Below the pieces are notes generated by a model that saw only the letters and a program-made list of their open reading frames with translations, did no database searches and was not told the DNA's origin. 64,000 bases of DNA from an uncultured Gemmatimonadales bacterium. Its GTDB lineage: Bacteria > Gemmatimonadota > Gemmatimonadetes > Longimicrobiales > RSA9. The position numbers and the translations under genes were made by a program. Below, one piece after another: positions 11,349 through 24,262 of this stretch. Numbering within the stretch: the stretch's first letter is position 1; every line of letters starts with the position of its first letter. The stretch is from NCBI GenBank assembly GCA_963783305.1, contig CAWAMW010000002.1, positions 768,001 to 832,000 on the forward strand, in the 5' to 3' direction.

Positions 11349-12128
11349 GTGACGCACCCCGATATCGCGGTCGAGGCCGAGTCGCTCGTCCGTGCATTAC
11401 GAGGGGTCACCTGCGCCCGAATTCGCAGCTCCGACCACGGAATCGAGAGCATCCACGTCACCGCCAGCGATGACGACGCAGCCACTCACATGGCCGCCCA
11501 CGTCCGGTCAGCACTCCTCGCCGGACTCGCCGCACCCGTCACCCCCGCTCGCATCCACATCGTTGTGGCCCCGAACGACGAGCAGAGCGCGCCCACGGCG
11601 CCGCCCTCCGACGATCGGCTCCAGCTCCTCCGTTCCGACACGACTCCACAGCAGACGCTACCACAGCCCGATGCGCCCGCGTCCGGGGATGTGGACGCGG
11701 AAGACCGCCTCAATCCGCCCGGAGACCACGGCGACCCCGAAGCAGCGACCGAACGCCCCATCACGGCCCGCCCGCGACTCGTGGCCGTCGACACCGACCA
11801 CCCCGGCGGTGGCCGCGTGATCTGCCGCGTATCGATCGCTTACGGCACTCGCGTCCACCGCGCCGAGGCTGTCGCCGTCGACCTGCCCGGCTCCGCCGCT
11901 CAGGCCGCCGCCCAGGCCGCCGTCCGCGCACTCATCGACGCAGGCTTCACCGGCATCGAGCTCTGCGGACTGCGCGAAGTCGAGATCGCCGGCCGCGACT
12001 ACGTCCTCGTAGCACTCCGACGTACCGAGCCCTTCACGCGGACCCGCTCCGGCAGCGCACCCATCGTCGGGTCCGCCGAGCGCTCCGCCGCCGAGGCGAC
12101 CGTCGCCGCGGCCCACGAACTGTCATGA
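11349..12128 (+). CDS. Hypothetical protein (two alpha/beta domains joined by a Pro/acidic linker)
   Basis: Coding-like codon bias; LRGVTCARI..IESIHV...VRSALLA N-domain and AAQAAAQAAVRAL...AEATVAA C-domain; start uncertain. Confidence 0.75.
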   Translation: MTHPDIAVEAESLVRALRGVTCARIRSSDHGIESIHVTASDDDAATHMAAHVRSALLAGLAAPVTPARIHIVVAPNDEQSAPTAPPSDDRLQLLRSDTTPQQTLPQPDAPASGDVDAEDRLNPPGDHGDPEAATERPITARPRLVAVDTDHPGGGRVICRVSIAYGTRVHRAEAVAVDLPGSAAQAAAQAAVRALIDAGFTGIELCGLREVEIAGRDYVLVALRRTEPFTRTRSGSAPIVGSAERSAAEATVAAAHELS

Positions 12129-12309
12129 TCGATCCGACGCGTCGGCCGCAACGCCGACCCGACCCGAACATCACCAACTAAAGGAGCCCCCCGCCGGCGG
12201 AAAACATCAGCGAAGTACTCAGCGGACACCAGCAGGACCCAGCGGAGCGTTCGCGGCCCACCATTAGCGGATCGAGGCCGACGCACACGCGAAAGGAGGT
12301 GACGCTGAC

Positions 12310-12378
12310 ATGGAGCTAATTCTTCGCCTGATCGCGGCCGTAGTCTCGCTGTTGGGGGCAGGCCAACTGACAGTATAA
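12310..12378 (+). CDS. Unannotated 22-aa hydrophobic peptide MELILRLIAAVVSLLGAGQLTV
   Basis: AAAGGAGGTGA Shine-Dalgarno at 12292-12302, ATG at 12310, TAA at 12376-12378; below the ORF-track size cutoff. Confidence 0.75.
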   Translation: MELILRLIAAVVSLLGAGQLTV

Positions 12379-12410
12379 GTAGGGCTGGGGGTTCCTTTTT
12401 ATTTTTGCCG

Positions 12411-13754
12411 ATGCCAAAACCGCTCACTTTCTTTATAACCGGCCTGACCGCTGCGGCTGTTTCCTTCGTTTTGCTGTTGGACTGGGCACCTCTTGTCAGC
12501 TTCACCCCTACCGAGATCGGTGGGCTCGCCACCTTTGTGGCTCTGGCGGTGCTCTCTCAGGCAATGGCGGTCGACTCCGTGGTTGGAGTGGCCAAGCCGG
12601 TGAAGTCGTCAATTGCCTTTCTACCGCTACTGGCATTGGCCGTCGTATTCCCTCCCGTCGCTGTGGTTATCGCTGCTGGGGGCATGTTCGTGGTGAACGA
12701 ACTGGTCCTTCGCAGGGATAGGATCTGGATGCGGGCTGCGTTTAACATCAGCCAAATCGTCCTGTCGTACGGGTGCGCCAGCTGGTTATTTCACCGGCTA
12801 TACTGGGTGAACTCCGCAGGCGCTGAAACTCTGTTTGATGGTGGCCTGGCCGCCATCTTTGTCCCGTTCTACGCCCTCGCGTTCACATTTTTCGGCCTGA
12901 ATCTGCTGGTTGTCGGCGCTTACATCGCCATTCGGGACAAGCAGCCATACTGGCGGATCATCCAGGAATCAGCAGGAAGCGGTGGTGGGAACCTCTTTTA
13001 TGATCTTTTGGCCAGCCCGGTTGCTCTCTTCGCGGCATACCTGTATGTCAACATGAAGGTCGCTGGGCTACTCGGCTTTGTTCTGCCACTTCTTCTTATC
13101 AGGCACTCCTATCTCGCAGCCATGCAGTTGGAGAAGGCGAACCGGGACCTACTGCAGGTGCTGATCAAGGCTATCGAGACGAGGGATCCGTACACATCAG
13201 GGCATTCCCTCCGCGTGTCTACCCTGGCAAAGATGATTGCGGAAGACCATGGCTTGCGGGCGTCAATCGTTAATGATATCGAGAACGCCGCTCTCCTGCA
13301 CGATGTAGGCAAAATCGATGCACTCTATTCGGATATCATTGCAAAAGACTCTAGCCTTTCGGAAGAGGAACTTGACATAATCAAGACTCATGCTGCTACG
13401 GGCGCCGATCTCCTACAAAGTTTGACCTCCTTGGACCGTCAGATCGTCGTTGGCGTTCGCCACCACCACGAACGGTACGACGGGACCGGGTATCCGGACC
13501 GACTACAAGGGAAATCGATCCCTCTCGCGGCTCGCATTATCATGCTGTGCGATTCAATCGACGCAATGTTATCCGATCGACCCTACCGCGCTGCTCTGCC
13601 TGTGCAGCATGTTCGATCGGAACTCATCCGCTGCTCAGGCAGTCAATTCGACCCTGACCTCGTGCGGACAATTTTGAACAACAACACGCTCGAACGGGCT
13701 GCCTTCCTTGCCGACAGGTCTGGGGCACGTACGCCCGTACGGGTCGTAGGCTGA
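12411..13754 (+). CDS. Membrane-bound HD-GYP cyclic-dinucleotide phosphodiesterase (multi-TM N-terminal sensor)
   Basis: About 7 TM segments, then ETRDPYTSGHSLRVS, LLHDVGKI, HHHERYDGTGYP, DSIDAMLSDRPYR, QFDP. Confidence 0.92.
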   Translation: MPKPLTFFITGLTAAAVSFVLLLDWAPLVSFTPTEIGGLATFVALAVLSQAMAVDSVVGVAKPVKSSIAFLPLLALAVVFPPVAVVIAAGGMFVVNELVLRRDRIWMRAAFNISQIVLSYGCASWLFHRLYWVNSAGAETLFDGGLAAIFVPFYALAFTFFGLNLLVVGAYIAIRDKQPYWRIIQESAGSGGGNLFYDLLASPVALFAAYLYVNMKVAGLLGFVLPLLLIRHSYLAAMQLEKANRDLLQVLIKAIETRDPYTSGHSLRVSTLAKMIAEDHGLRASIVNDIENAALLHDVGKIDALYSDIIAKDSSLSEEELDIIKTHAATGADLLQSLTSLDRQIVVGVRHHHERYDGTGYPDRLQGKSIPLAARIIMLCDSIDAMLSDRPYRAALPVQHVRSELIRCSGSQFDPDLVRTILNNNTLERAAFLADRSGARTPVRVVG

Positions 13755-13937
13755 CGCAGCCCTTTTTAAGTTAGCTGCACCGCCTAAGCTGTCCCAGACC
13801 GAGACAAGCGCCTCTATAGGCCACAGAATTGTTCTACGACTCCCCTCGTAGCGAATTGTCTCAAGTGGCTATCGGTTCCCTTAGACAATTGTGCAACATT
13901 ACACCAGTCGCGAGATCTCGTCTCAGGTGGGGTTCCC

Positions 13938-16900
13938 ATGGTGGTTCAGAGTCTATGCAGTTGCACCTTGTTGGGTAGGTGTACGCTGCAATACGCCGGT
14001 AAATGCATTTATTTCAGCCCCAAGCATGTGGCGCTTATCGCCAGGCTCGCGACCTCGAGAACTCGGAGTTGTAGCAGAGCCGTTCTTGCGCGAGAGCTCT
14101 GGCCGGCGTCGGATGACAGCGATGGTCGGCACAGTTTAAGTCAGGCGATTTACCGACTTCGGTCCCTGACTCACGCCTCGCTAATTGAGGCAGATTCGGA
14201 AGTCGTCACTCTAGGAGCAATTACCACAGACATCGAGGCATTCTGCTCTCACCACGGGCTCGGTCGGTGGAAGGAGGCAGCAGAAGTGTACGGTGGCTCG
14301 CTCTTAGAGACGGTGGAATTGGATGAATGCGTCGATATTTCCCACTGGGTTGAATCCACAGCGGCTCATTATCGACTGATGGCGGAGGATGTGCTCGATG
14401 GCCTTTGCGCTGACGGAGAATGGGCACCCGCCCTTAAGTTGTCGGACACTCTCTTAGAGAAGGACAACGAAGATCCGCGGCTTCATGCTCTGCGGCTTCG
14501 GGCTATCGGGGAGTTGAACGGCGAGGAAGCAGCGGCAGCCGCTTTTCGCGCTGCTGATCTTTCCGATCGAGGTGCAGTTTACGAACTCTGGCGCAACCTA
14601 TCGGGGATGGCCGGTGACACCAGGCGCAGTTCCCCGATATTTGTAGGGCGCAATACCGAACTGGCCCAACTTGAAAGGGAACTCTCCTGCGTCAAATCCG
14701 AAGGGACTCGGGCAGTCCTCTTGGACGGCGACGCAGGAATAGGCAAGACGGCCCTCTTGAATCGATTCGTCAAGACACGCGTAATCAGAGGCGATATTGC
14801 GCTCGTCGCTTCTTCGTCTGAGGCAGAACAAAAGGTACCGTTTGGCGTTTTAGACCAGTGGCTCCAAGCAATTCCTGATCGGCTATTGGCCCGCCACTAC
14901 GACGCCCCCTGGTGGCCCGTTCTCTGTGGCTTGTTCCCTTCACTATCAGCCAAACACGAGGCACAACTTGTTGACCCGGTTGAGCACCGGAGGCTTCTTG
15001 AGGCCTTGCGACGCCTTTTCGCCGCGCTCGCCGACAATAATGTGCTTTTGATTTCGGTGGACGATGCGCACTTCGCCGACTCCGCGTCCTTGGCGTTTCT
15101 CTCCTACCTAATCGGCAAAGAGCGGGAGGCCCCCATAATGCTGCTGTTGGCGCGGCGGAGTAGGGCAAGCGGAGGACTGGAGTCACTCGTCGACCGCTAC
15201 TCAGCAACCCGAATAGCTCTGGACCCGCTTTCTGAAGCAGATATCGATCTGTGGCTGCGTAAAGTCCGCATTGGAGACGAGGGACGCCGCAATGACTCTG
15301 TTTCAAGTCTCGTATTAAGAACCGGAGGAAGCCCCCTCCTGATCGCGGCCCTCCTTGAAGGCCAACGCGATCTGCCTCCGGAGCATCTGCCTGCGACTGT
15401 CATGGAGTACTACAGGCCGATCCTACTTAGCCTATCGCCGACGTCGAATTCAATTCTGGTCGCAATTTCTATTATTGGAGAACACGTCGCTCGCGATATA
15501 CTTGCGAGTATCGTTGGGTTGTCCGGCACTGCCACTGCCAGTGCCTGCACCGAGTTGTTGCAGGCTGGGCTTATAGTGATCGGGCCTGAGGGTGTTGTTG
15601 GGCTTAGGCATGGTATTGTGGGAGAGGTCGCTCTTTCGTTGGCGACTGAACCCGAGCAGCGCCGGATCCACGGGCGCACCGCACGCTTGTATGAGCACCG
15701 CCGCCCTGCTGGTACCGCAATCGCAGCTGTTTCCCATGACATCGCAGGCAACAAAACGGCCGCTTTCACTGCGGCCAAGCGAGCAGCGCAGGCTTGCGCT
15801 GTTCTTAACGCACACAGTGAGCGTCTGTTCTTCCTTAAGCTGGCAATTGCGAATGCTCCTAATTCAGATGAGGCCGCCGGTCAAAGGGTCGCCTTAGCGG
15901 AAGTTCTACTGACATTGGGTCGTCCAGGAGAGGCACTGGAATCTTTGAACGAGAAACTGGTTCAAGGGGCAGCTTTGCAAACGAACGTGCGCGTGCAAGT
16001 CCAGCGACTCTCTGCGAGACTCGCACTCGCAGGAACGGCCGAGGAAGTTGAGCAATGCTGGTTTCAGGCGCAGTCATTGGCCAGAGCAACTAGCACGCCT
16101 ATGGTAGCTCGGCTGTACTCCGACATTGCAGGCGCGGCTCACGACCTCGGCAACGACACACTTGCGGGTCAGATTTTGGACAAAACGCGCAACATTGTTG
16201 AGGACCTGCCTGCTTCGATCGCGCGTTCCGAACTCCTCCTTCGCCCAATTAGGCTTACAGGAGTAACTGACGATTGCGATCGGGCCTTCCGTGAACTCGA
16301 AGCCTTGCCGCCCGCCAACGCAACAGCGATCGAGTATAAGTGCAAACTACACGCAACGAAGGGCATTCTTTTAATGTCGGCGGGCAAACCTGCTGCGGCG
16401 GAACGGGAGTTTTCGGAAGCTCTTTTTATTGCTGAGCGTCACGGACTCTACGACAACCTCTTTATGCTCTACAACAATTTAGGCGTTTGCCTCATTGAAC
16501 AGGGTAAGTATATAGATGCGGAATCCCAAATATCGCGAGCAGGGGACTACGCGTCATTCGACACATACCCTGCCCAATACTCACTCGTTTCGGATAACCG
16601 CGCCGTTTTGTATTACGAGACTGGCCGCTATCAGGAGCTTCTCTTTATCGCACAGGACGGCTTGCGAGGAGGGAAGACCAAGGGCCGGCGCAGCCTTCTT
16701 CACACGTACATCATGATTGGACTTGCCGAACTCTCAATCGGTCGTCTGGGAAAAGCCCGCGAGGCTGAGCGAGAAGCCCGCCTTCTTCAGTCAGACAGTC
16801 ATCCTCTCAGGTCGGACTCCTCCTATATACACATTTTTGCTGCAAGAATGCGGGTGGCAAGTGAGCATCCTTACGAGGCAGTCGAGTACCTGGAGGCTCG

Positions 16901-17099
16901 AGCCGGTGACAACATGCGAACACTCGTACTGTCGCGCTGGCGGCTCGAAATCGAAGCCTTTCGCATCCGGTCTTCTATGGGACTCCCTATCCCGGGCATC
17001 GAGCGGCTCCTTGGACAACTTAACGGATCGGGGGCGGAGCCCCTGATCGAGCGCGCGCAAACTCTGCACAGACGGGTTGAGCGCAGCGCAATTTGCTAG
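13938..17099 (+). CDS. SARP-type (wHTH + BTAD) transcriptional regulator fused to a STAND/AAA ATPase and TPR repeats
   Basis: LLG..., SRAVLARELWP...SLSQAIYRLR, AEVYGGSLL, FVGRNTEL, Walker A GDAGIGKT, Walker B SVDDAHFAD, TPR LYNNLGVCLIEQGKY. Confidence 0.85.
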   Translation: MVVQSLCSCTLLGRCTLQYAGKCIYFSPKHVALIARLATSRTRSCSRAVLARELWPASDDSDGRHSLSQAIYRLRSLTHASLIEADSEVVTLGAITTDIEAFCSHHGLGRWKEAAEVYGGSLLETVELDECVDISHWVESTAAHYRLMAEDVLDGLCADGEWAPALKLSDTLLEKDNEDPRLHALRLRAIGELNGEEAAAAAFRAADLSDRGAVYELWRNLSGMAGDTRRSSPIFVGRNTELAQLERELSCVKSEGTRAVLLDGDAGIGKTALLNRFVKTRVIRGDIALVASSSEAEQKVPFGVLDQWLQAIPDRLLARHYDAPWWPVLCGLFPSLSAKHEAQLVDPVEHRRLLEALRRLFAALADNNVLLISVDDAHFADSASLAFLSYLIGKEREAPIMLLLARRSRASGGLESLVDRYSATRIALDPLSEADIDLWLRKVRIGDEGRRNDSVSSLVLRTGGSPLLIAALLEGQRDLPPEHLPATVMEYYRPILLSLSPTSNSILVAISIIGEHVARDILASIVGLSGTATASACTELLQAGLIVIGPEGVVGLRHGIVGEVALSLATEPEQRRIHGRTARLYEHRRPAGTAIAAVSHDIAGNKTAAFTAAKRAAQACAVLNAHSERLFFLKLAIANAPNSDEAAGQRVALAEVLLTLGRPGEALESLNEKLVQGAALQTNVRVQVQRLSARLALAGTAEEVEQCWFQAQSLARATSTPMVARLYSDIAGAAHDLGNDTLAGQILDKTRNIVEDLPASIARSELLLRPIRLTGVTDDCDRAFRELEALPPANATAIEYKCKLHATKGILLMSAGKPAAAEREFSEALFIAERHGLYDNLFMLYNNLGVCLIEQGKYIDAESQISRAGDYASFDTYPAQYSLVSDNRAVLYYETGRYQELLFIAQDGLRGGKTKGRRSLLHTYIMIGLAELSIGRLGKAREAEREARLLQSDSHPLRSDSSYIHIFAARMRVASEHPYEAVEYLEARAGDNMRTLVLSRWRLEIEAFRIRSSMGLPIPGIERLLGQLNGSGAEPLIERAQTLHRRVERSAIC

Positions 17100-17848
17100 C
17101 GCTGCTCACCGCGGATCCATGCTTCGACGATCCATTCCCAGCCCAGGTGCTCTCGAATGAATGTGGGGCGGTAGCCGGTGAGTCGCTTCATGGCGTTGCT
17201 CATGGTGAAGCCGTCGCTGTAGCCGAACCGGACGGAGACCCGGTTGATGCTGAGGCGGGTGTTCTGGATCTGTATGGCGACGTGCAGGACGCGCGCGAAC
17301 TGCAGCCAGTGTGAAGGCACGGGCAGGTCGCGCTCCTGAAAGAACCGCCCGAGTGTGCGCCGTGACTGGCACATCCGCGCGGCCAGCCGGTCGATGCTGC
17401 TCACGTGGGGCGCCGCACTGAAGATGGTTTCGACCACCTCTCGAGTCGCCTCGTCCTGGACCACGCCCGAGTCTTCCAGCTGATCGGCCACAGCCGCCGG
17501 CAGCGCTGTAGGAGGTGAGGCCAGCAGCGTCCCCAGCGCATGGGCGAGCCCGCGGCCGGCAGATGGGATCACGGCCCGCGGACGCGTATCGGGAATGTGG
17601 CGCAGGATGGACGCAATCGACGCGATGTCCTCGGGTTGCGGAAGCACGATGAACAGCGGCAGCCACGCCGGCCGAGCGCGCACCCATTCCAGCTCGGGGT
17701 AGATGCTGCCCTCCGGCGCCATGAACCACACGGCAGACCCACCGGGCTCGGGTTCGTGAGGGGACCAGCCCAGCTGAACGGGCTCGTAGCTCCGATAGGG
17801 GGGACAGAAGCGGAAGAGTCCCTGTCTGGGTAGTGTTTCGCGTCGCAT
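17096..17848 (-). CDS. AraC/XylS-type HTH regulator
   Basis: C-terminal SIDRLAARMCQSRRTLGRFF...FGYSDGFTMSNAMKRLTGYRP; GGAGG RBS. Confidence 0.85.
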   Translation of the reverse strand: MRRETLPRQGLFRFCPPYRSYEPVQLGWSPHEPEPGGSAVWFMAPEGSIYPELEWVRARPAWLPLFIVLPQPEDIASIASILRHIPDTRPRAVIPSAGRGLAHALGTLLASPPTALPAAVADQLEDSGVVQDEATREVVETIFSAAPHVSSIDRLAARMCQSRRTLGRFFQERDLPVPSHWLQFARVLHVAIQIQNTRLSINRVSVRFGYSDGFTMSNAMKRLTGYRPTFIREHLGWEWIVEAWIRGEQR

Positions 17849-17979
17849 GATGCCTCCGGCGGTTCTGAGGGGTGAAACCAAGCTCACACGCCGGTATCAA
17901 CGAGCTATCAACAATACCCGTTCACCCCGAGCCCGCCGGGACCTCCTCGCTGAGTCTGGAACGGTTCTTCCCGTATGGA

Positions 17980-22243: not shown

Positions 22244-24262
22244 TCAGGGTTCACTTCGCCGGACCACCAGGCGGCGGAAATACCAGATCAGCGCGACGAA
22301 GAGCACCAGCGCGAGCCACGGCCCCGCCGCCCCCGCCCACTCGTAGCCCACCGTCCACGGGTTCTGGCCCCGCGACACGGCGTAGCCGGCCGCGCCGGCG
22401 ATGACCACGCCGATCAGGCCCTCACCGCCCACGAGCCCGGAGCCGAACAGGATCCCGCGGTCGCGCCGGGCGGTGCCCTCCTCCTCGTCGTCGGCCTGCC
22501 GGACGAGCAGCATGCGGAGCAGCCCACCCAGAAACACCGGGAACATGGTCGATACGGGGAGGTACACGCCCACCGCGAAGGGCAGGGACGGGATGCGAGC
22601 CACCTCGGCGAGCAGGGCGATCCCGGCGCCGATGGCCACGAGCACCCACGGCAGGTTCTGCGCGAGGACACCATCGATCACCAGCTTCATGAGCGTGGCC
22701 TGGGGCGCCGGTAGCTCCTCACCGCCGAACCCATAGGCGTTCGCCAGCAGGAGGACGGTCAACGCCACGAACGCCGCGGACGTGAGCACGCCCACCAGCT
22801 CGCCGATCTGCTGACGGCGCGGTGTGGCCCCGAGCAGCATACCCGTCTTCAGATCCTGCGAGCTGTCCCCGGCGATCGAGGCCGCGATGGCCACCACCGC
22901 CCCTACCGTGAGCGCCGCCACCTTCCCCGCATCGTCGGTCCACCCGAGGATAAGGAAAATGCTCGCGGTGCCCAGCAGCGTCGCAATGGTCATCCCGCTG
23001 GTGGGGTTGGACGTTACCCCCACCAGGCCCACGATCCTGGAGCTCACCGTCACGAAGAAGAACGCGAAGATCACCACCAGAAGCGCCGCGATGGCACGGC
23101 CCCAGGCGAATTCAATGCTGCTGAACGCCTGCGGGACCAGCGCCAGAATCAGGAATACGGCCAGGGCCCCGATTCCCACCACGCGCAGAGACAGGTCGTT
23201 CTCCGTCCGCATCACCTTCTCCGCCTCATCGCCGGCGGCGAGTCGGTCCCGGATCTGCGCCGCGCCGATCTTGAAGCTCTCGATCATGGTCGGGATGCTC
23301 CGGATGAGCGTGATCAGCCCCCCCGTTGCCACCGCGCCCGCTCCGATGTAGCGCACGTACCGGGTCCAGATGAGACTGGCGTCCATCTCCGCGATCGTGA
23401 GCGCGGTCTCCGGGAACAGCGGATCCACCCGTCCCGCACCCCACCAGTCGATGAGGGGGATGATCACCAGCCAGGAGAGGAGCCCGCCCCCCACCATGAT
23501 GGTCGCGATCCTCGGACCCAGGATGTACCCGACACCGAAGAGCGCAGGCGAGATATCGCTCCCGAGCTGACCCTTCCGCAGGAACGGGATATGGACCTCG
23601 ATGGAATCCGGCACCGCGCGCATCCACCCCGTGATGCCTTTCATCGCCGCGCCCACCCCGAGCCCGAGGAACACGTTCCTGGCCCGCGACCCGCCGCCCT
23701 CGGCCGCCTTCAGCACTTCCGCGCACGCCGTACCCTCGGGGTACGGCAGCTCGTGATGCTCCCGCACGATCAGGTACGGGCGCAGCGGGATCATGAACAG
23801 CACGCCCAGAAGACCGCCGCACATGGCCAGCAGCGTGATCTGCACCACGTTCGTCTCGAAGCCCCAGAGGAAGAGCGCCGGGAGTGTGAAAATCACGCCG
23901 CTGGCGATGGAGCTCGAGGCCGAGCCCACCGTCTGTGACATGTTGGCTTCCAGAATCGAGCTCTTCACTCCCCCCGCACGCAGCGCGCGGAAGAGCGCGA
24001 CCGTCATGACGGCCACGGGGATCGATGTAGAGATCGTCAGACCCGCCCGCAGCCCCAGGTACGCGTTGGCGGCCCCGAACAGGATGCCGAACATGATTCC
24101 CGCGGCGATCGCCTTGACCGTCGCCTCCGGCGGGCTTTCCCCCGCCGCCACGTACGGCGCCGGCGGCCGGTCGGTCGGGCCGGCCACATCACCCGCCGGC
24201 ATCATCGCGCCCGGTTTCCCCGGGTCGGACGTAGGGGAGCTCCTTCCTCGGTCGGCCGCCAT
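22244..24262 (-). CDS. OPT family oligopeptide transporter
   Basis: AANAYLGLRAGLTISTSIP, LPYPEGTACAEVL, TSNPTSGMTIATL, SQDLKTG, PAPQATLM; AGGAG RBS. Confidence 0.95.
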   Translation of the reverse strand: MAADRGRSSPTSDPGKPGAMMPAGDVAGPTDRPPAPYVAAGESPPEATVKAIAAGIMFGILFGAANAYLGLRAGLTISTSIPVAVMTVALFRALRAGGVKSSILEANMSQTVGSASSSIASGVIFTLPALFLWGFETNVVQITLLAMCGGLLGVLFMIPLRPYLIVREHHELPYPEGTACAEVLKAAEGGGSRARNVFLGLGVGAAMKGITGWMRAVPDSIEVHIPFLRKGQLGSDISPALFGVGYILGPRIATIMVGGGLLSWLVIIPLIDWWGAGRVDPLFPETALTIAEMDASLIWTRYVRYIGAGAVATGGLITLIRSIPTMIESFKIGAAQIRDRLAAGDEAEKVMRTENDLSLRVVGIGALAVFLILALVPQAFSSIEFAWGRAIAALLVVIFAFFFVTVSSRIVGLVGVTSNPTSGMTIATLLGTASIFLILGWTDDAGKVAALTVGAVVAIAASIAGDSSQDLKTGMLLGATPRRQQIGELVGVLTSAAFVALTVLLLANAYGFGGEELPAPQATLMKLVIDGVLAQNLPWVLVAIGAGIALLAEVARIPSLPFAVGVYLPVSTMFPVFLGGLLRMLLVRQADDEEEGTARRDRGILFGSGLVGGEGLIGVVIAGAAGYAVSRGQNPWTVGYEWAGAAGPWLALVLFVALIWYFRRLVVRRSEP

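Follow-up and report, generated by a model that had tools for sequence, protein, structure and literature searches.

A small open reading frame in a conserved RNA element upstream of MASE9-HD-GYP genes and its variable four-residue tail, a candidate ligand of the MASE9 membrane sensor

In the agrBDC and comQXP systems, a small precursor is encoded beside a membrane receptor, and the variable ligand and sensor form a block between conserved flanks. In the RRNPP systems, processing of the precursor by signal peptidase I is common (PMC9765709), and the phage-encoded YIP peptides bind the diguanylate cyclase YfiN (PMC8085984). For the membrane domain MASE9 the literature gives no ligand, and binding within the membrane is expected (Galperin and Chou, 10.1101/2021.11.05.467447). 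HdgA of Streptomyces venezuelae is membrane-bound, weakly expressed and without a phenotype, and its activating signal was supposed to be missing (PMC6205966). Here we describe a locus in a 64,000-nucleotide (nt) stretch of DNA from an uncultured Gemmatimonadales bacterium (GenBank assembly GCA_963783305.1, contig CAWAMW010000002.1, positions 768,001 to 832,000, forward strand; hereafter the window). In this locus a 22-codon open reading frame (ORF), enclosed in a structured RNA element, precedes a gene for a MASE9-HD-GYP protein, a predicted phosphodiesterase of cyclic di-GMP (c-di-GMP). The last four residues of the encoded peptide form a tail that, in two other genera, varies together with MASE9 and is likely to bind it.

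The initial annotation had called an unannotated ORF behind a near-perfect Shine-Dalgarno (SD) site, and both calls hold: the SD sequence AAAGGAGGTGA is the sole copy within the window (0.01 expected), and the ORF at 12310-12378 translates to MELILRLIAAVVSLLGAGQLTV followed by a stop codon. The spacing of 32 bp to the HD-GYP gene is likewise correct, as the ATG lies at 12411. The small ORF is present in a single copy in the genome, and the GC content drops from about 70% to 55% across 12400-17100. That annotation lacked three features: the enclosing RNA element (12180-12398), a conserved gene upstream of it, and a hairpin resembling a terminator that separates the HD-GYP gene from the following SARP-STAND-TPR regulator gene. 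The features of the module are the following:

11349..12128, forward strand: conserved upstream gene without a Pfam family (the frame is open from 11256, and its exact start is uncertain)
12180..12195, forward strand: 5' arm of a long-range RNA helix, a 16-bp complement to 12383-12398 with compensatory changes
12209..12271, forward strand: four AGCG(G/A)A repeats, at 12209, 12221, 12241 and 12266 (probability of such a cluster by chance about 7e-4)
12292..12302, forward strand: SD site AAAGGAGGTGA of the small ORF, by motif count in the window
12310..12378, forward strand: small ORF of 22 residues, with an amphipathic body (residues 1-18) that closes with G-A-G
12364..12375, forward strand: variable four-residue tail QLTV, candidate MASE9 ligand (the tail tracks MASE9 in two other genera)
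12383..12398, forward strand: 3' arm of the long-range helix, beginning 5 nt past the stop and ending 12 nt ahead of the HD-GYP start, with a U-rich run next to it
12411..13754, forward strand: MASE9 (residues ~1-235, predicted ECF S-component fold) and predicted HD-GYP phosphodiesterase, according to Pfam, a structural model and fold matches

The conservation of the small ORF was assessed in the phylum and class of the window genome (taken as Gemmatimonadota, since its nearest named relatives belong to Longimicrobiales), which are the phylum and class meant throughout; MASE9-like genes were detected in 78 of the 201 class genomes sampled for the gene search. Among phylum loci with enough flanking DNA (five further loci with too little upstream DNA were left out), an SD-led hydrophobic ORF of 12-40 residues occurs within 300 nt upstream of the MASE9-HD-GYP gene in 51 of 56, compared with 1 of 433 control windows. 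Four of the five missed loci have a visible ORF or leader below the thresholds, and the fifth has an interrupted gene. Under a looser rule, small ORFs precede genes for MASE9-HD-GYP proteins shorter than 520 residues in 22/24 loci of Bacillota, 8/11 of Actinomycetota and 5/9 of Chloroflexota; the corresponding numbers are 3/7, 4/17 and 6/13 for other or unassigned architectures and 11/114, 5/105 and 1/78 for control windows. (One Actinomycetota tally took in the unpublished genomes G592 and G560; no claim about the peptide depends on either.) One locus of Thermotogota has a small ORF, and one of Desulfotruncus does not. The ratio of nonsynonymous to synonymous polymorphism (pN/pS) is 0.48 in 15 pairs picked by likeness of the leader and 0.30 in 21 pairs picked by likeness of the peptide, the latter being a biased choice. 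These comparisons show a conserved small ORF on which purifying selection acts. Since none of four Bacillota MASE9-GGDEF genes (~580-600 residues; L177, L189, L191 and L193) has an upstream small ORF, the peptide accompanies the HD-GYP form.

Several irregular loci were also observed. In L430/L300 (G754), the ORF behind the strong SD site departs from the usual frame once past its start and gives an 11-residue product; a different frame encodes the body and tail known from other loci. The tail is duplicated in L107 (G084), where TGKILW occurs twice. In L100 (G137), the MASE9 gene is interrupted by ~1.3 kb of other, insertion-element-like DNA, and in L406-L412 (genus g37) the MASE9 gene is spread over two frames in several genomes, through either sequencing error or true decay.

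The relation between the peptide and the sensor was examined in two genera, designated g31 and g37. In g31, 23 of 50 genomes were matched. The comparison covered the 18 that have a complete MASE9 and a peptide beginning with the common MLQLL; of the five set aside, two have truncated loci, one lacks upstream DNA and two begin differently. Residues 1-18 of the g31 peptide show one or two states per position, and the last four positions 5, 8, 6 and 5 states. Identities span 0.26-0.91 in MASE9 and 0.81-0.98 in the leaders. Tail identity correlates with that of MASE9 with a rho of 0.43, compared with 0.18 for the HD domain, 0.16 for the leader and 0.15 for the upstream DNA, and the partial Mantel r between tail and MASE9 is 0.44 (p 0.0002, n=18). 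Genomes that share a tail have similar sensors: MASE9 identity is 0.78-0.88 for TVSI (four genomes), 0.91 for LVGW and 0.79-0.87 for xSQ(I/L), and the LTWT/LMWI pair, at 0.79, is only ~0.3 identical to the rest. Genomes G131 and G007 are nearest to each other by leader (0.98) and HD domain (0.92), yet their tails differ and their MASE9 identity is 0.69. In codons 1-18 even the synonymous sites are almost fixed, and the tail codons within the TVSI class (5 alleles) and the LVGW class (3 alleles) show synonymous changes only. In g37, where 31 of 61 genomes were matched and 23 loci were examined (ORF called in 20, of which 14 complete), the partial Mantel r is 0.55 for the tail (p 0.0003, n=14) and -0.15 for the variable body (p 0.80). 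In both genera, tail classes match MASE9 classes.

The residues behind the LGAG turn (QLTV) had initially been guessed to be the ligand part of the peptide, and it is indeed in the last four residues, after the G, that the peptide varies along with the membrane sensor. On the evidence of these alignments, we consider it likely that the tail binds MASE9. In the window's own genus the tails are QLTV, FLTL, FLTV and HLQW. The assembly of one member, G746, has a 100-N scaffold gap that extends from right after ...LLGAG to the HD domain and a further gap in the TPR region of the SARP-STAND gene, compared with no gaps in 400 kb of control DNA, which was drawn from the 20 largest contigs and so favours well-assembled sequence. 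The two gaps may reflect a mixture of alleles in the sampled population.

Residues 41-218 of the protein encoded by the adjoining gene match Pfam MASE9 with 27.3 bits, above the cut-off of 24.3, and the protein also matches HD_5 (E 7e-30). As initially annotated, the catalytic motifs are intact: the metal and GYP residues D259, H297-D298, H327, H352-H353-E354, G360-Y361-P362 and D381 are all kept, the HD-GYP portion matches the fold of 4mcw (Z 24.6), and hydrolysis of c-di-GMP is predicted from the sequence. The earlier count of roughly seven transmembrane (TM) helices was close; the AlphaFold model (78 sequences; predicted local distance difference test, pLDDT, 93) shows eight membrane helices, including a re-entrant pair. 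The model resembles the S-components found in transporters of the energy-coupling factor (ECF) type, with RibU at Z 13.6 (root-mean-square deviation, rmsd, 2.9; 163 aligned; residues 31-216), the NikM-type 4m5c at Z 13.5 (192 aligned; residues 1-219) and ten more S-component entries at Z 8.9-13.0. A Z of ~13 is borderline for helical bundles; nearly all of the matches outside the HD portion have the S-component fold, with twelve such entries within the top 50. Foldseek alone ranked S-components weakly (RibU E 0.06), and Atlas searches with the sensor returned MASE9 clusters. An ECF S-component fold, including its six-helix core and L1 hairpin, is therefore predicted for MASE9.

In S-components, loops L1, L3 and L5 face the outside and close the pocket (PMC4820897). 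In MASE9 the charge counts are net +3.2 for loop 99-109, +0.7 for loop 174-192, +0.2 for the hairpin and -0.8 for loops 23-33 and 129-147. Because the corresponding loops 99-109 and 174-192 are positive, the hairpin is neutral and loops 23-33 and 129-147 are negative or neutral, the fold is probably inverted, its pocket opening to the cytoplasm. Candidate pocket residues that are conserved comprise R/K108, F111, N112, Q115, N164 and W184. Between two tail classes (seven sequences), 12 of 19 fixed columns lie, by our own assignment, at the predicted cytoplasmic end, in the hairpin strand 47-64, the end of helix 4, the T167 side, 179-180 and 230.

The small ORF is enclosed by an RNA whose arms covary. 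The arms of a locus pair better with each other than with those of other loci, with scores of 35.0 vs 23.9 in Gemmatimonadota (n=48), 34.4 vs 21.3 in Bacillota (n=22), 33.8 vs 21.0 in Actinomycetota (n=12) and 28.5 vs 23.5 in Chloroflexota (n=8). None of 10000 permutations reaches the score of the first three phyla, and 107 of 10000 reach that of Chloroflexota, p-values that are too strong, as kin are not independent. RNAalifold recovers the outer helix and a small inner hairpin (12254-12258 paired with 12276-12280) whose loop holds the last repeat; changes on both sides occur in 5 of 10 pairs, and the inner stem covaries. Because the leader of the window folded alone is not significant (z -1.57), the RNA structure rests on comparison. 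The motif AGCG(G/A)AG is present in 47/48 phylum leaders, 19/22 of Bacillota, 6/12 of Actinomycetota and 3/9 of Chloroflexota. In the latter two phyla, the repeats occur in 7/7 loci with the conserved upstream gene and in 2/14 without it. Twelve Actinomycetota and Chloroflexota loci have the peptide upstream of MASE9-HD-GYP even without the repeats and the upstream gene. Rfam gave no match over 11900-12420, and two chance matches elsewhere (E 1.6 and 4.3).

A role of the long-range helix as a general terminator was rejected; a U-rich end follows it in the window, but in just 3/46 phylum and 4/21 Bacillota loci. A TRAP-type attenuator was also discarded, PF02081 not being found in the window genome (G000, 96% complete). 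The genome does contain a CsrA gene (C7:466297-466449). The CsrA site motif is ANGGA; the repeats read AGCGGA or, often (39/91 leaders), AGCGAA, which lacks the GGA, and those repeats that do contain GGA may be read by CsrA as a second protein.

Our candidate for binding the AGCG(G/A)A repeats is the protein encoded by the upstream gene, a homologue of which precedes the small ORF in 22/22 Bacillota and 45/48 Gemmatimonadota loci. In its predicted structure (pLDDT 85), the N-domain is CDF-CTD/BolA-like, and the C-domain has the regulatory fold of LeuA/CimA. The model matches the regulatory domain of LiCMS with Z 9.8 (rmsd 3.0, 109 aligned) and the C-terminal domain of MamM with Z 9.2; Atlas searches found unnamed clusters only. 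Three observations make it less likely that no protein besides this neighbour reads the repeats: the window copy lacks the family motifs PKQxxR and DHRKIS, the genome holds four paralogues, and in a Thermotogota locus the repeats lie behind a different upstream gene. The four paralogues (including C17:222622-223932, C16:543360-544034 and C16:519774-520172) are not followed by repeats or a small ORF; genomes of the window's family carry 4-6 copies. In part of family f5 (L119, L121, L122 and L123) an extra gene separates the upstream gene from the RNA leader, with HTH_17 and receiver domains in L119. In several genomes (as in L126 and L128) the module is preceded by a GGDEF domain joined to an Fe-S domain like that of [FeFe]-hydrogenase, an arrangement that puts a cyclase and a phosphodiesterase into one gene run. 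Other genomes have sigma-54 activators or phosphodiesterase-family genes in the same upstream place.

Downstream of the module lie the following features:

13749..13769, forward strand: hairpin and U run resembling a terminator, behind the HD-GYP gene (three such sites in 3.1 kb, 2.1 expected; weak alone)
13938..17099, forward strand: regulator with SARP-type winged helix, STAND ATPase and TPR region, a low-GC divergent allele; conserved neighbour in the class, varying independently
17096..17887, reverse strand: AraC-family regulator, conserved beside the SARP gene in the order

The regulator (1053 residues) had been described as wHTH-BTAD-ATPase-TPR. AAA_16 and TPR score over the cut-off and the winged helix under it; BTAD was not matched here, and was matched in two of three scanned orthologues. 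The gene has a GC content at third codon positions (GC3) of 0.58, compared with a genome median of 0.86 (2188 long ORFs), low GC3 throughout and eight TTA codons. It is ~35% identical to orthologues of the same genus, compared with 58-72% for AraC and HD, and is probably a whole-gene allele replacement. No second SD-led peptide that might serve the regulator was seen in 13755-13937. An OPT-family oligopeptide transporter (Pfam OPT, E 3e-103) is encoded 5 kb from the module (22244-24262, reverse strand); it was set aside, since in none of 37 regions taken from relatives does it lie close to the module.

We propose that the 22-codon ORF encodes a membrane-bound precursor, the last four residues of which (QLTV) would bind, with allele specificity, to MASE9 in the HD-GYP enzyme encoded next to it and so set the predicted breakdown of c-di-GMP by this enzyme. 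The tail may be cleaved behind the small-X-small motif (G-A-G), taken up, and reach the pocket from the cytoplasm, as with Phr/SHP peptides; this pocket of the inverted fold would be lined by the conserved R108, N112, Q115 and N164. The long-range helix, which in this phylum covers the region where the HD-GYP gene starts, may couple synthesis of the sensor to translation of the peptide, and the upstream protein would read the repeats. Our favoured reading, held at somewhat less than even confidence, is that the released and re-imported tail is a cell-to-cell signal of self-recognition through MASE9. It is favoured over action in the producing cell only, because specificity groups would account both for tail classes that several species have in common and for the Bacillota precursors with the form of a signal peptide. 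By counts of charge and small-X-small patterns, on which the judgement of export signals is based, the Bacillota precursor looks like a signal peptide plus a tetrapeptide, with K/R among the first five residues in 22/22 and small-X-small ahead of the tail in 21/22. More tentative still is the broader proposal of a widespread class of peptide quorum sensing, in which a tetrapeptide from a mini-gene in a protein-controlled RNA ring would be read by an inverted S-component-phosphodiesterase, with allelic groups in at least five phyla, including the diderm Gemmatimonadota.

Several observations weigh against the favoured reading. In the window's family (many genera; ORF in 20/22 loci), the partial Mantel r is 0.11 for the tail (p 0.10) and 0.17 for the peptide body (p 0.02), and the phylum-wide partial correlation of the whole peptide with MASE9 is 0.08; the co-variation of peptide and TM domain that the initial annotation proposed to test is borne out for the tail in g31 and g37 and is not significant in the window's own family. 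Some co-variation is expected from joint transfer alone, because tail and MASE9 lie 30-100 nt apart. The phylum precursors are not signal-peptide-like, with K/R among the first five residues in 5/43 and D/E in the body in 35/43; small-X-small occurs in 35/60, and some precursors have just 14-16 residues. The locus contains no protease or exporter. The inverted topology derives from charge counts, not from model coordinates, and a cytoplasm-facing pocket would demand an uptake step for the tail. S-component pockets usually hold small molecules. DUF5317, which is the membrane partner outside this phylum and is encoded downstream of the HD-GYP gene in 18/22 Bacillota, 1/12 Actinomycetota and 6/9 Chloroflexota loci, was rejected as a membrane partner here, being found in 0/121 class genomes.

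The non-basic N-terminus and amphipathic body in the phylum, the lack of an exporter in the locus and the inward pocket favour action within the producing cell, where an uncleaved amphipathic peptide in the inner leaflet would modulate its own sensor through the same contact between tail and MASE9, in an amount set by the RNA leader. The small protein MgrB, which modulates PhoQ, provides a precedent, as do the phage YIP peptides, which act on YfiN from inside (PMC8085984). This alternative accommodates all of the co-variation and the predicted cytoplasm-facing pocket; it fits less well with the many tail classes common to species of one genus, which resemble cell-to-cell specificity groups, and with the signal-peptide form in Bacillota, and we regard it as rather unlikely. 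Distinctly less probable is that the ORF is a leader peptide only, the translation of which opens the long-range helix over the HD-GYP start (or blocks termination), with the co-variation reflecting joint transfer of adjacent DNA. The position of the 3' arm, which in most phylum loci ends within ~4-22 nt of the HD-GYP start, and the nearly fixed synonymous sites of codons 1-18 in g31 agree with such a role. In a folding model, the 3' arm is released when a ribosome occupies the stop codon (unpaired 0.08 to 0.93), but the start region becomes no more open (0.60 vs 0.57), and in Bacillota the arm ends well ahead of the next ribosome site. A leader role also leaves unexplained the tail codons that vary just synonymously within two allele classes, the g37 tail that tracks MASE9 where the body does not, and the peptide kept where the RNA element is absent.

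The TPR region of the SARP-STAND regulator had been put forward as a reader of the peptide, as in RRNPP systems, alone or besides MASE9. The regulator gene is adjacent in 14/20 class regions (by tblastn) and in L003, and its TPR region is hypervariable (0.31-0.73), the most variable part of the protein, with the second G746 gap falling in it. A drop in GC3 of at least 0.1 in the TPR region was found in 11/20 such genes versus 1/12 other SARP-STAND genes (p 0.003); mere position beside the HD-GYP gene was rejected as its cause, because G089, in which the gene has the reverse orientation, still shows the dip in the TPR region. Despite this variability, TPR identity in 12 g31 genomes is correlated neither with the tail (rho 0.06 over 55 pairs) nor with MASE9 (rho -0.07): TPR regions are 34% identical between two genomes that share the tail LVGW and have 85% identical MASE9, compared with 62-65% between genomes with different tails. 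The regulator and HD-GYP genes converge in all of those class regions and are co-oriented in the window, G746, G089 and G754 (window's family); here a terminator-like hairpin separates the two. No such neighbour is present in three loci outside the phylum with long flanks. Reading of the tail by the TPR region is thus very improbable, and the regulator is probably a neighbour with its own variable sensor. The upstream gene, RNA, peptide and MASE9-HD-GYP gene thus form the core, and the regulator is a class-specific neighbour. Type I toxin mRNAs resemble the small ORF unit in size, hydrophobicity and end-to-end pairing, and a small membrane toxin silenced by 5'-3' pairing of its mRNA would be a further explanation, for which there is a weak match to TisB (E 0.024, far under the cut-off). 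The single genome copy, the fixed place before MASE9-HD-GYP in five phyla, the co-variation of the tail with the sensor and the absence of an Rfam antitoxin match speak against it, making it the least credible of the alternatives.

The analysis provides a specific, synthesisable four-residue candidate ligand for the orphan sensor family MASE9, and natural cognate and non-cognate pairs are on hand in the tails TVSI, xSQI and LVGW with their sensors. If the proposal is true, peptide signalling would feed directly into c-di-GMP turnover without a kinase; its reach would comprise Gram-negative-type soil bacteria and Bacillota, Actinomycetota, Chloroflexota and Thermotogota, and MASE9 would be a further receptor with the fold of a transporter. 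With the negative TPR result, one branch of the earlier model falls away and a second, independently variable sensor is left.

In the literature searched, which largely does not extend to subscription journals, no published account of the peptide, the RNA element or DUF5317 was found. The tail/MASE9 co-variation, the MASE9 fold and orientation and the negative TPR result are new here. TM1467 of Thermotoga maritima and HdgA share the Pfam MASE9 and HD_5 architecture of the window protein, but the accessible accounts of MASE9-HD-GYP proteins (the main text of 10.1101/2021.11.05.467447, and PMC6205966 in part) name neither an upstream peptide or RNA nor an S-component fold. The 5TMR kinases (BtsS/YpdA) and MreD are non-transport users of the S-component fold (PMC11109136). 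As is predicted for MASE9, the 5TMR kinases use a six-helix S-component core with an extra N-terminal helix as a sensor; their helix 0 starts outside, whereas the charge counts of MASE9 suggest the opposite orientation, with one more C-terminal helix. The accessible part of that paper mentions neither MASE nor HD-GYP.

Like agrBDC and comQXP, the locus has a small precursor adjoining a membrane sensor and a variable block between conserved flanks; co-variation of ligand and sensor between such flanks was found in two genera and was not significant across the window's family. Unlike in those systems, the output is a predicted c-di-GMP phosphodiesterase rather than a histidine kinase, the peptide contains neither a ring cysteine nor a prenylated Trp, the ORF lies within a structured RNA, and the neighbours are a protein of an unnamed family, the SARP-STAND-TPR regulator and AraC, with no AgrB or ComQ in the locus. 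As in the RRNPP systems (Rap/Phr, Rgg/SHP), there is a short precursor, a candidate active piece at its C-terminus and a TPR protein next door; here, however, the TPR region belongs to a SARP-STAND regulator and shows no co-variation with the tail, and the co-varying partner is a membrane protein. The YIP/YfiN pair shares with the present proposal the control of a c-di-GMP enzyme by a peptide, but involves a foreign peptide that acts on a cyclase, as opposed to a co-encoded allele pair with a phosphodiesterase.

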